From the NCBI RefSeq assembly GCF_048403405.1, contig NZ_CP183129.1: a DNA stretch of 64,000 nt. One strand, 5' to 3'. Below are positions 17,159-21,277 of this stretch, one piece after another. The notes beneath the pieces are model-generated. The model was not told the DNA's origin. It saw only the letters and a list, made by a program, of their open reading frames with translations, and searched no databases. A program made the position numbers and the translations under genes. The stretch comes from Escherichia coli. Lineage in GTDB: Bacteria; Pseudomonadota; Gammaproteobacteria; Enterobacterales; Enterobacteriaceae. How positions within the stretch are numbered: position 1 is the stretch's first letter; the number at the start of each line of letters is the position of its first letter.

Positions 17159-17200
17159 CCCGAATGGCGGCGCTATTGCCGCCATTCGGTTATTTTTTAA
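17159..17200. terminator. Rho-independent terminator between convergent ssuB and pepN
   Basis: Stem CGAATGGCGGC / GCCGCCATTCG (17161-17188) followed by TTATTTTTT. Confidence 0.6.
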
Positions 17201-19809
17201 GCCAGTGCTTTAGTTATCTTCTCGTACAGATCGCCAGAGAGATTTTCCAGCCCTTTCAACTGTTCCAGCGCCGCGCGCATTTTCTCCTGACGTTTGGCAT
17301 CATAACGTTTCAGGCGAATCAGCGGCTCAATCAGGCGCGAAGCCACCTGCGGGTTACGGCTGTTGAGGTCGGTAAGCATTTCCACCAGGAACTGGTAACC
17401 GCTGCCATCTTCAGCATGGAACGCTGCCGGGTTGCTGCCCGCAAACGCGCCAATCAACGAACGAATACGGTTCGGGTTGCTCATGGTAAATGAGCGATGC
17501 TGCAACAGGCCACGCACCGTCTCCAGCACATTCGCCGCCGGGCTGGTGGCTTGCAGGATAAACCATTTATCCATCACCAGACCATCCTGATGCCACTTGT
17601 CGTCGTATTCCTGCATCAGCGCGTCACGGCAAGGCAGCTGTGCAGCAACCGCCGCAGAAAGCGCTGCCAGCGCATCGGTCATATTGTTTGCTTCATGGTA
17701 TTGCTTGCTCACCAGCACGTCAGCCAGATGCGTTTCACCAAAAGCAAGGAAGCGCAGGCAGGCATTACGCAGAGTGCGTTTTGCAATATCTTCATGCTCA
17801 ACACGGTACTCGCTCTGGTAATTCGCGTTGTAAATAGCCAGTAGCTCATCCGCCAGTTCAGTCGCCAGAGTACGAGTGAGTGCTTCGCGTACTTCAGCAA
17901 TAGCAATCGGGTCGATGATATCGAACAGTTCTGCCATTTCATTGACGGAAGGCAGCGTCAGGATTTCTGCCGCCAGTGCCGGATCAATCTTCTCATCAAG
18001 CAGTACCGCGCGGAAAGCATCAGCCACATGCACCGGCAGAGACAGCGGCTGCCCTTGCTGATGACGGGCGACGTTGAGCTTGATGTAGGTTGCCAGCAGG
18101 CTTTGCGCCGCATCCCAGCGGGAGAAATCATTACGCGCATGACGCATCAGGAAGGTCAGTTGCTGATCGCTCCACTTATATTCCAGTTTCACTGGCGCAG
18201 AGAATTCGCACAGCAGCGCAGGCACCGGCTGAAAGTAGACATTATCAAAGACAAAGGTCTGTTCCGCCTGGGTGACGTTCAGCACCGAATTCACCGGATG
18301 ACCGCCTTTCTGCAACGGGATCACTTTGCCTTCGTTGTCATACAGTTCGATGGCAAACGGAATATGCAGCGGCTGTTTTTCTGCCTGATCCGGCGTAGCA
18401 GGCGTGCGCTGGCTGATGGTCAGGGTGTACTGCTCGGTTTCCGGATTATAGTCGTCTTTGACGGTCACAACCGGCGTACCGGACTGGCTGTACCAACGGC
18501 GGAAATGAGAGAGATCGACATTCGACGCATCTTCCATCGCCTGAACAAAGTCGTCGCAGGTTGCCGCGCTGCCATCATGGCGCTCGAAATAGAGCTGCAT
18601 CCCTTTCTGGAAGTTTTCTTCGCCCAGCAGGGTGTGGATCATGCGAATCACTTCCGCGCCCTTCTCGTAAACGGTCAGGGTGTAGAAGTTGTTCATCTCA
18701 ATGACCATATCCGGGCGGATCGGGTGCGCCATCGGGCTGGCGTCTTCCGCAAACTGCAATCCGCGCATGGTGCGCACGTTGTTGATACGGTTTACCGCGC
18801 GAGAACCAAGGTCAGAGCTGAATTCCTGATCGCGGAAGACGGTTAAACCTTCTTTCAGGCTGAGCTGGAACCAGTCGCGGCAGGTCACACGGTTACCGGT
18901 CCAGTTGTGGAAATATTCGTGACCAATAACACGCTCAATATCGAGGTAATCTTTATCGGTGGCGGTGTCGGTACGGGCCAGCACATATTTGGAGTTAAAG
19001 ATATTCAGACCTTTATTCTCCATTGCGCCCATATTGAAGAAGTCCACCGCGACGATCATATAGATGTCGAGGTCATACTCCAGGCCGAAGCGTTCTTCAT
19101 CCCATTTCATGGAGTTTTTCAGCGAGGTCATCGCCCACGGCGCGCGGTCGAGGTTGCCGCGATCGACGTACAGCTCCAGCGCCACTTCGCGACCAGAACG
19201 CGTGGTGAAGGTGTCGCGCAGCACGTCGAAGTCGCCTGCAACCAGCGCAAACAGGTAGCACGGTTTAGGGAACGGGTCCTGCCACTGTACCCAGTGACGT
19301 CCGTTTTCCAGTTCGCCTTGCGCAACGCGGTTACCGTTGGAAAGCAGGAAGGGATATTTGGTTTTATCGGCAATAATTTTGGTGGTAAAACGCGCCAGTA
19401 CGTCCGGGCGGTCAAGATAATACGTAATATGGCGGAAACCTTCGGCTTCACACTGAGTGCAAAGCGCATCGCCTGACTGATAAAGCCCTTCCAGCGCGGT
19501 ATTCGTCGCCGGGCTAATTTTATTAACGATCTTAAGCGTAAAACGCTCCGGCAAATTACTGATGACCAGTGCGCCCTCTTCTTCTTTCCAGGCGGTCCAA
19601 GGCTCATCATTAATATGAACAGAAACCAGTTTAAGATCTTCGCCATCAAGACGAAGCGGAGCATCTGATGCACCATGACGGACAGCCTGGCTGACCGCGG
19701 TAACGACCGTCTTTTGCGCGTCCAGGTCAAAGGTCAAGTCAATATCAGTAATCTGGTAATCCGGCGCACGATAATCGTGACGGTATTTGGCTTGTGGCTG
19801 TTGAGTCAT
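17197..19809 (-). CDS. pepN: Aminopeptidase N
   Basis: 870 aa ORF starting MTQQPQAKYRHDYRAPDYQITDIDLTFDL; M1 zinc peptidase motifs HEYFHNWTGNRVT and GAMEN. Confidence 0.95.
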   Translation of the reverse strand: MTQQPQAKYRHDYRAPDYQITDIDLTFDLDAQKTVVTAVSQAVRHGASDAPLRLDGEDLKLVSVHINDEPWTAWKEEEGALVISNLPERFTLKIVNKISPATNTALEGLYQSGDALCTQCEAEGFRHITYYLDRPDVLARFTTKIIADKTKYPFLLSNGNRVAQGELENGRHWVQWQDPFPKPCYLFALVAGDFDVLRDTFTTRSGREVALELYVDRGNLDRAPWAMTSLKNSMKWDEERFGLEYDLDIYMIVAVDFFNMGAMENKGLNIFNSKYVLARTDTATDKDYLDIERVIGHEYFHNWTGNRVTCRDWFQLSLKEGLTVFRDQEFSSDLGSRAVNRINNVRTMRGLQFAEDASPMAHPIRPDMVIEMNNFYTLTVYEKGAEVIRMIHTLLGEENFQKGMQLYFERHDGSAATCDDFVQAMEDASNVDLSHFRRWYSQSGTPVVTVKDDYNPETEQYTLTISQRTPATPDQAEKQPLHIPFAIELYDNEGKVIPLQKGGHPVNSVLNVTQAEQTFVFDNVYFQPVPALLCEFSAPVKLEYKWSDQQLTFLMRHARNDFSRWDAAQSLLATYIKLNVARHQQGQPLSLPVHVADAFRAVLLDEKIDPALAAEILTLPSVNEMAELFDIIDPIAIAEVREALTRTLATELADELLAIYNANYQSEYRVEHEDIAKRTLRNACLRFLAFGETHLADVLVSKQYHEANNMTDALAALSAAVAAQLPCRDALMQEYDDKWHQDGLVMDKWFILQATSPAANVLETVRGLLQHRSFTMSNPNRIRSLIGAFAGSNPAAFHAEDGSGYQFLVEMLTDLNSRNPQVASRLIEPLIRLKRYDAKRQEKMRAALEQLKGLENLSGDLYEKITKALA

Positions 19810-20027
19810 AAATAACCTTTAGCATCTTTTATAGAGTCTGGTGTTCAGTCTATTCCTGTTGCGTAAATCGCGCTATGCAGAATCTTCATCTTTTCAGGTA
19901 CAAACGCCTTTATTGCTACATTTTTATAACATACACCGCGTAATGCCATCGACCAGAAAGGTGGCATATGGTGTGATCGGGGTTCAATAAATTGCGAAAC
20001 AAGGTATACTCCAGCAGTTCCTGAAGA

Positions 20028-20045
20028 TGTTTATTGTACTAAACG
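20028..20045. promoter_or_regulatory. Candidate NadR operator (NAD box) in the pncB promoter
   Basis: Inverted repeat TGTTTA-ttgtac-TAAACG about 30 bp upstream of the pncB ATG, with a TATACT -10-like hexamer at 20004-20009. Confidence 0.55.
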
Positions 20046-20074
20046 CTCCTGTACGAGGACGCTACTGCGCACCT

Positions 20075-21277
20075 ATGACACAATTCGCTTCTCCTGTTCT
20101 GCACTCGTTGCTGGATACAGATGCTTATAAGTTGCATATGCAGCAAGCCGTGTTTCATCACTATTACGATGTGCATGTCGCGGCGGAGTTTCGTTGCCGA
20201 GGTGACGATCTGCTGGGTATTTATGCCGATGCTATTCGTGAACAGGTTCAGGCGATGCAGCACCTGCGCCTGCAGGATGATGAATATCAATGGCTCTCAG
20301 CCCTGCCTTTCTTTAAGGCCGACTATCTTAACTGGCTACGCGAGTTCCGCTTTAACCCGGAACAAGTCACCGTGTCCAACGATAATGGCAAGCTGGATAT
20401 TCGTTTAAGCGGCCCGTGGCGTGAAGTCATCCTCTGGGAAGTTCCTTTGCTGGCGGTTATCAGTGAAATGGTACATCGCTATCGCTCACCGCAGGCCGAC
20501 GTTGCGCAAGCCCTCGACACGCTGGAAAGCAAATTAGCCGACTTCTCGGCATTAACCGCCGGTCTTGATATGTCGCGCTTCCATCTGATGGATTTTGGCA
20601 CCCGCCGACGTTTTTCTCGTGAAGTACAAGAAACCATCGTGAAACGTCTGCAACAGGAATCCTGGTTCGTGGGCACCAGCAACTACGATCTGGCGCGTCG
20701 GCTTTCCCTCACGCCGATGGGAACACAGGCACACGAATGGTTCCAGGCGCATCAGCAAATCAGCCCGGATCTAGCCAACAGCCAGCGAGCTGCACTTGCT
20801 GCCTGGCTGGAAGAATATCCCGACCAACTTGGCATTGCATTAACCGACTGCATCACTATGGATGCTTTCCTGCGTGATTTCGGTGTCGAGTTCGCCAGTC
20901 GCTATCAGGGCCTGCGTCATGACTCCGGCGACCCGGTTGAATGGGGTGAAAAAGCCATTGCACATTATGAGAAGCTGGGAATTGATCCACAGAGTAAAAC
21001 GCTGGTTTTCTCTGACAATCTGGATTTACGCAAAGCGGTTGAGCTATACCGCCACTTCTCTTCCCGCGTGCAATTAAGTTTTGGTATTGGGACTCGCCTG
21101 ACCTGCGATATCCCCCAGGTAAAACCCCTGAATATTGTCATTAAGTTGGTAGAGTGTAACGGTAAACCAGTGGCGAAACTTTCTGACAGCCCTGGCAAAA
21201 CTATCTGCCACGATAAAGCGTTTGTTCGGGCGCTGCGCAAAGCATTCGACCTTCCGCATATTAAAAAAGCCAGTTAA
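20075..21277 (+). CDS. pncB: Nicotinate phosphoribosyltransferase
   Basis: 400 aa from [24 protein letters not shown]; internal Met of track ORF 20027..21277. Confidence 0.93.

Follow-up and report, generated by a model that had tools for sequence, protein, structure and literature searches.

The window analysed here, a stretch of 64,000 nucleotides of Escherichia coli DNA read on one strand, contains pncB, whose product carries the NAPRTase_N and NAPRTase domains (Pfam); asnS follows pncB, and the divergently transcribed pepN lies on its other side. The intergenic region between pepN and pncB (19810-20090) is 100% identical to that of K-12 MG1655. The list of open reading frames opened the pncB frame at an upstream in-frame ATG (20027), within the region of the palindrome described below; we placed the start instead at ATG 20075, in keeping with the RefSeq coding sequence of a 100% identical strain and with the conserved N-terminus MTQFASP. 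In related genera a single-nucleotide indel falls immediately before ATG 20075, which indicates that the stretch upstream of this ATG is non-coding. The features of the locus are collected in Table 1.

Table 1. Features of the pepN-pncB region, given in window positions.
Feature	Position	Strand	Basis or remark
pepN, aminopeptidase N, divergent from pncB	17197-19809	-	265-bp intergenic region between both genes
Weak -35-like TTCAAT (3/6 matches, 16-bp spacer)	19983-19988	+	Placed by spacing only
Half-site-like GAAACA between -35 and -10	19996-20001	+	Comparison of genera
-10 hexamer TATACT (-12 to -7)	20005-20010	+	Sequence, mapped TSS, conservation
pncB transcription start site (TSS), G	20017	+	PMC3415461, transferred to the window; intergenic region identical to K-12
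pncB 5' leader, 58 nt	20017-20074	+	Mapped TSS, RefSeq start
NAD box (predicted NadR operator)	20028-20045	.	Sequence, conservation, PMC2330245 consensus
NAD-box left half-site TGTTTA	20028-20033		
NAD-box spacer TTGTAC, exactly 6 bp	20034-20039		
NAD-box right half-site TAAACg	20040-20045		
Shine-Dalgarno-like GAGGA, 15 nt before ATG	20055-20059	+	Conserved across Enterobacterales
pncB, nicotinate phosphoribosyltransferase, 400 aa	20075-21277	+	RefSeq of a 100% identical strain; Pfam

Several observations concern the pepN side of the intergenic region. Three pepN starts in the K-12 TSS list correspond to window positions 19809, 19840 and 19916 on the minus strand (7, 7 and 12 reads, respectively), and one of the three is leaderless, falling exactly on the pepN ATG. 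An inverted repeat, ATGCCA-N13-TGGCAT, occupies 19943-19967; in related genera GGCA-N5-TGCC is found near that position in its stead. The pepN leader (19780-19907, minus strand) produced a match to the PepN_thermometer family (RF02779) that scored 21 bits, where the gathering score is 83 (E = 0.24), and this sub-threshold match is probably due to chance.

The K-12 TSS map of Kim et al. 2012 reports a pncB start with 180 reads and a 58-nt 5' UTR (PMC3415461, supplementary file 2), the upstream sequence of which ends ...GGTATACTCCAGCAG; since the intergenic region of the window is identical to that of K-12, this start maps to G20017. A consensus sigma-70 scan of 19780-20120 (4-of-6 rule) returned zero promoters because the -35 of pncB is weak, and the promoter was then assigned via the published TSS. 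A conserved block that spans the -35, TGTGATCGGGGTTCAATAAA (19972-19991), is kept as far as Yersinia and Erwinia, and is possibly an activator site or an UP-like element. Its conserved TGTGA (19972-19976) makes the block resemble a CRP half-site, and a class II CRP site was considered there and rejected; the right half agreed at only 2 of 5 positions and its centre would lie at -37.5 rather than -41.5. Between the -35 and the -10, positions 19996-20001 read GAAACA in the window, TAAACA in other genera that carry the NAD box and TAATCA in Enterobacteriaceae that do not; an auxiliary NadR half-site at this position would be a speculative reading, and the difference could simply be clade-specific drift.

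NadR of E. coli and Salmonella is a NAD-responsive repressor which reads TGTTTA-N6-TAAACA by means of a helix-turn-helix (HTH) domain at its N-terminus (PMC2330245). The first-pass annotation had proposed a NAD box, TGTTTA-N6-TAAAC, between the TATACT and the start of pncB, and had described it as positioned over the pncB promoter. The pattern is present at 20028-20044 and its placement was borne out, with the ATG at 20075; the 18th base, at 20045, is a non-consensus G. The complete 18-bp inverted repeat, TGTTTA-TTGTAC-TAAACG (TGTTTATTGTACTAAACG), agrees with the NadR consensus at 11 of the 12 specified positions, its sole departure being position 18, where the consensus has A. Counted from the mapped start, the box extends from +12 to +29 (centre +20.5), and it begins 47 nt before the ATG; it is thus not over the promoter in the sense of the -35 and -10 hexamers and lies in the initially transcribed region, as the placement between TATACT and the pncB start in the first-pass annotation already implied.

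The exact pattern TGTTTA-N6-TAAAC occurred once in the 64-kb window against 0.01 expected, and the full consensus with at most one mismatch also occurred once against 0.16 expected; after shuffling of the window, 15 of 100 sequences contained at least one match of the latter kind. At the level of two mismatches there were six matches in the window against 2.4 expected, the other five being near chance. By itself, then, the motif is only modestly unlikely in 64 kb and is not decisive, so that the case for an operator rests on its context, the 58-nt leader of a NAD salvage gene, and on its conservation across genera.

The K-12 nadA operator, TGTTTAGCATATAAAACA, has one mismatch to the consensus; the nadB operator is a perfect TGTTTAGTAAATTAAACA, the end of which lies 6 nt before the nadB ATG, and a second, weaker nadB box, TGTTTAGCAACTGTAACA (two mismatches), lies 74 bp upstream. 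Comparison with these two operators, which the first-pass annotation had put forward as a check, favoured the assignment; the half-sites of the pncB box equal theirs, save for G in place of A at position 18, and its spacer, TTGTAC, is its own. The operators of nadB and nadA-pnuC in E. coli and Salmonella have the same 18-bp palindrome architecture and half-sites and belong to the same NAD regulon (PMC2330245, PMC12421817). Shared half-sites combined with unlike spacers would be explained by the reading of all these sites by the same dimeric HTH protein. Unlike nadB, which has an additional upstream box, pncB has at most the half-site-like GAAACA between its -35 and -10. Because the nadB box ends only 6 nt before the ATG, it would likewise lie at or downstream of its TSS; the K-12 list of Kim et al. 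contains only a minor start for nadA (5 reads) and none for nadB.

Within the species, the region was matched in 5425 of 5426 complete E. coli genomes, and the 80 bp from 20001 to 20080 were identical in at least 5404 of these 5425 (>99%), whereas the surrounding 1.1 kb reached an identity of at least 99% in only 721 E. coli genomes. The regulator, a trifunctional protein of Enterobacterales that is both NAD repressor and salvage enzyme, is encoded outside the window; nadR was found in 5424 of the 5426 complete genomes, and in K-12 NadR an HTH_3 domain (residues 7-59) precedes the NMN-adenylyltransferase and kinase regions. At the species level, E. coli thus encodes a NadR with an N-terminal HTH domain, and the box lies in the leader of a NAD salvage gene.

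For comparison across genera, a degenerate pattern of the conserved PncB N-terminus (12 residues) was used to retrieve at least 120 loci, one genome per species, and the region upstream of pncB was extracted from 118 of the loci listed. At least 24 loci, with 23 unique sequences among them, had a NAD box 46-47 nt before the ATG; they represent about ten genera, those listed being Escherichia, Citrobacter, Enterobacter, Kluyvera, Leclercia, Kosakonia, Pluralibacter, Phytobacter and Pseudocitrobacter, together with some MAGs. Salmonella and Klebsiella were not among the loci listed, and we infer the presence of their pncB boxes from phylogenetic position and the literature. Both half-sites were invariant among the 23 unique sequences listed, in which 16 of the 18 box columns did not vary; in the box-bearing loci listed the -10 block was likewise invariant (10 of 10 columns), as TATACT also was in most of the box-less Enterobacterales listed. 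The spacer TTGTAC was near-invariant in the box-bearing loci listed (majority fraction 0.97), and the linker of 14 nt that separates the box from the TSS region had a majority fraction of only 0.63 among the loci listed. The retention of this spacer contrasts with the different spacers of the nadA and nadB operators and with the free variation of the adjoining linker. Among the loci listed, the length from the -10 to the box was 17 nt in 18 loci, 18 nt in two, 15 nt in one and 7 nt in the Enterobacter cloacae group, so that the box of that group must begin about 10 bp nearer to the promoter and not far from where transcription is predicted to start. The position of the operator therefore tolerates shifts within about +1 to +13.

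The promoter and distal leader are kept and the palindrome is missing in other Enterobacteriaceae, for example in Pseudescherichia, one Cedecea species, Siccibacter, Shimwellia and Mangrovibacter. In other taxa boxes were found at other distances upstream of pncB: Cedecea neteri and one further locus (L012) have a perfect TGTTTAGTACTCTAAACA (-196/-197), and there are boxes at -220 in Dickeya (two loci), at about -250 in Serratia (three loci), at -158 in Proteus and at -66 in Tatumella ptyseos. Serratia has about 2.3 kb inserted between pepN and pncB, so that its box may belong to another gene; Dickeya also retains a degenerate box of the E. coli type, TGTAAATTGTATTAAACG, at -36. Among the loci listed, those of Aeromonas, Vibrio, Photobacterium and Orbaceae had no box at up to two mismatches in the region upstream of pncB, and NadR of these lineages is without a DNA-binding domain (PMC2330245). 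DNA-binding NadR is restricted to Enterobacterales, where nadA-pnuC forms the conserved core of the regulon and pncB is a member in some genomes (PMC2330245, PMC5343134); in one set pncB belonged to the regulon in 6 of 11 Enterobacterales genomes and pnuC in all 11 (PMC5343134). The clade-restricted distribution of the pncB box agrees with this published membership, and across the loci listed the site recurs at orthologous promoters of related genera with a DNA-binding NadR, several other Enterobacterales having a box elsewhere upstream of pncB or none at all, and is missing where the HTH domain is missing. The pncB NadR site of the regulon reconstructions (Gerasimova and Gelfand 2005; the RegPrecise-based set, PMC5343134) is the same object as the box described here and not an analogue of it.

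These patterns bear on two alternatives. A functionless palindrome that arose by chance in an AT-rich leader would fit the recurrence of one-mismatch matches in the shuffled windows; against it stand half-sites that do not vary in the 23 unique sequences listed beside a linker that varies freely, the identity of the region in more than 99% of E. coli genomes, and the assignment of the leader to a gene of NAD salvage for which regulation by NadR is described in the literature, and we regard it as extraordinarily improbable. The conserved block TGTGATCGGGGTTCAATAAA leaves room for further factors at the promoter, and one of these rather than NadR might bind the palindrome; the identity of the motif with the NadR consensus and with the nadA and nadB operators, and a taxon distribution that tracks the lineages with a DNA-binding NadR, make this highly improbable. 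From its sequence and conservation, the palindrome at 20028-20045 is very probably the NadR operator of the pncB promoter.

The pncB leader consists of a variable linker of about 10 nt, the NAD box, and a conserved distal part, ACGCTCC-N5-GAGGA-YGC-N4-6-GCRCC, in which GAGGA is the sole Shine-Dalgarno-like sequence of the leader. This distal part (20041-20077), AAACGCTCC-N5-GAGGAYGC-N4-6-GCRCC(T)ATG, is kept across Enterobacterales, species without a NAD box included; in Enterobacterales without the box the homologous position reads ...GGAAACGCTCC-N5-GAGGATGC... The ACGCTCC that the right half-site overlaps is thus older than the operator, and its earlier presence probably explains why position 18 is G rather than A.

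Since the box is itself transcribed (+12 to +29), and since the leader is conserved throughout from the box to the ATG, spacer included, the palindrome might act not as a DNA operator but as an element of the pncB mRNA, such as a hairpin, that affects stability or translation. Folding of the leader RNA was no better than that of shuffled sequence (z = -0.05), however, and in the minimum-energy fold of the leader the two half-sites were unpaired; an Rfam scan of 19700-20300 returned no family above threshold, and hence neither a riboswitch nor a known leader. The arms do not vary, and zero compensatory changes in favour of a stem were therefore observed. Identical half-sites are also present at nadA and nadB, where the sequence context is unrelated, and the box-less Enterobacterales retain the distal leader without the palindrome. 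Together these data render an RNA-level role in place of the operator very unlikely. For the segment from the Shine-Dalgarno sequence to the AUG, RNAalifold gave a weak hairpin (-3.1 kcal/mol), in which the GG of GAGGA pairs with the CC before the AUG; all changes in it were one-sided, with zero compensatory pairs, and this hairpin was too weak to be put forward as a claim. The distal leader may be a translational element.

The near-invariance of the spacer and flanks goes beyond what the NadR consensus needs, and a second constraint may thus act on the same bases. One candidate is a minor divergent promoter embedded in the NadR site; read on the minus strand, the spacer region contains TACAAT (20033-20038), which lies at -13 to -8 of a start at 20025 (-), listed by Kim et al. 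with 5 reads on the pepN strand and assigned to pepN with a 216-nt leader. NadR would then also gate an antisense or long pepN leader transcript by occluding that start, and TTGTAC would be held near-invariant even though the nadA and nadB operators carry other spacers. The 5 reads, against 180 for pncB, are close to noise, the -35 is unrecognisable (CGTCCT), stronger pepN starts exist elsewhere (window 19916, 19840 and 19809), and the conservation of the spacer may instead reflect tuning of affinity or a function in the leader; such a second role for the NadR site is unlikely. A broader proposal, which we hold to be doubtful, is that the operator was built onto an older, order-wide leader element, (G/T)AAACGCTCC...GAGGAYGC...GCRCC-AUG, which possibly sequesters the Shine-Dalgarno sequence, and that its spacer serves in addition as the TACAAT -10 of a NadR-gated divergent promoter. 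If this were true, the same ~50 bp would serve to control transcription by NAD, the translation of pncB and a transcript on the pepN side.

Returning to the palindrome as a NadR operator, its distance from the hexamers means that simple occlusion of the promoter is not self-evident as a mechanism. In the open complex the DNA is covered by RNA polymerase as far as about +20, so that its downstream contacts should clash with a NadR dimer bound from +12 to +29. With ample intracellular NAD, NAD-liganded NadR would occupy the TGTTTA/TAAAC half-sites through its N-terminal HTH domains, on a site that overlaps the downstream DNA which the polymerase needs in the open complex; bound NadR would, on steric grounds, keep the polymerase from binding stably or from escaping the promoter, or would stop it early in elongation as a roadblock. 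That the distance of the box varies among genera is more in keeping with steric hindrance than with a precise protein-protein contact. Lower transcription of pncB would in turn reduce the salvage of nicotinate into NaMN. The arrangement resembles that of lac O1, in which a dimeric HTH repressor likewise binds a palindrome in the initially transcribed region that overlaps the downstream footprint of RNA polymerase; unlike lac O1, which is centred at +11, the E. coli pncB box has its centre further downstream, and pncB gave no sign of auxiliary operators or looping. A 2025 EMSA study found that c-di-GMP weakens the binding of NadR at the nadB and nadA-pnuC promoters, the only ones assayed. Upon a drop in NAD, or a rise in c-di-GMP as in that report, NadR would leave the DNA, and pncB would be derepressed together with nadB and nadA-pnuC.

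The first-pass annotation had read the box as consistent with repression of the salvage enzyme by NadR, and this reading gained support from the consensus match, the likeness to nadA and nadB, the conservation of the site and the listing of pncB as NadR-repressed. NadR represses nadB, nadA, pnuC and pncB (PMC12421817, which cites Tritz and Chandler 1973, Foster et al. 1987, Penfound and Foster 1999 and Grose et al. 2005), with repression of pncB known from both E. coli and Salmonella (PMC12421817, PMC2330245). This very box is presumably the one described in the primary work on the operator of pncB (Penfound and Foster 1999; Vinitsky 1991; Wubbolts 1990). In other bacteria genes of NAD synthesis and salvage are controlled by the repressors NiaR, NrtR and NadQ, some of which control pncB (PMC2330245, PMC2330246, PMC5343134); these belong to families unrelated to NadR, have other operator motifs and effectors, and are irrelevant to E. 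coli.

The NadR operator of pncB is thus already described; it is real, conserved and ordinary. Textbook regulation can here be read directly from sequence, which establishes nothing scientifically new and would not surprise a specialist; the additions, namely the position of the box relative to the mapped TSS, its distribution among clades and the origin of the non-consensus base, are incremental. Control of pncB by NadR is one lever that sets the NAD pool of E. coli, and deletion of nadR is routine in strains for the production of NAD or NMN (PMC12143786). With the operator at +12 to +29, replacement of the promoter alone would leave repression in place, whereas replacement of the promoter together with the leader would remove it.
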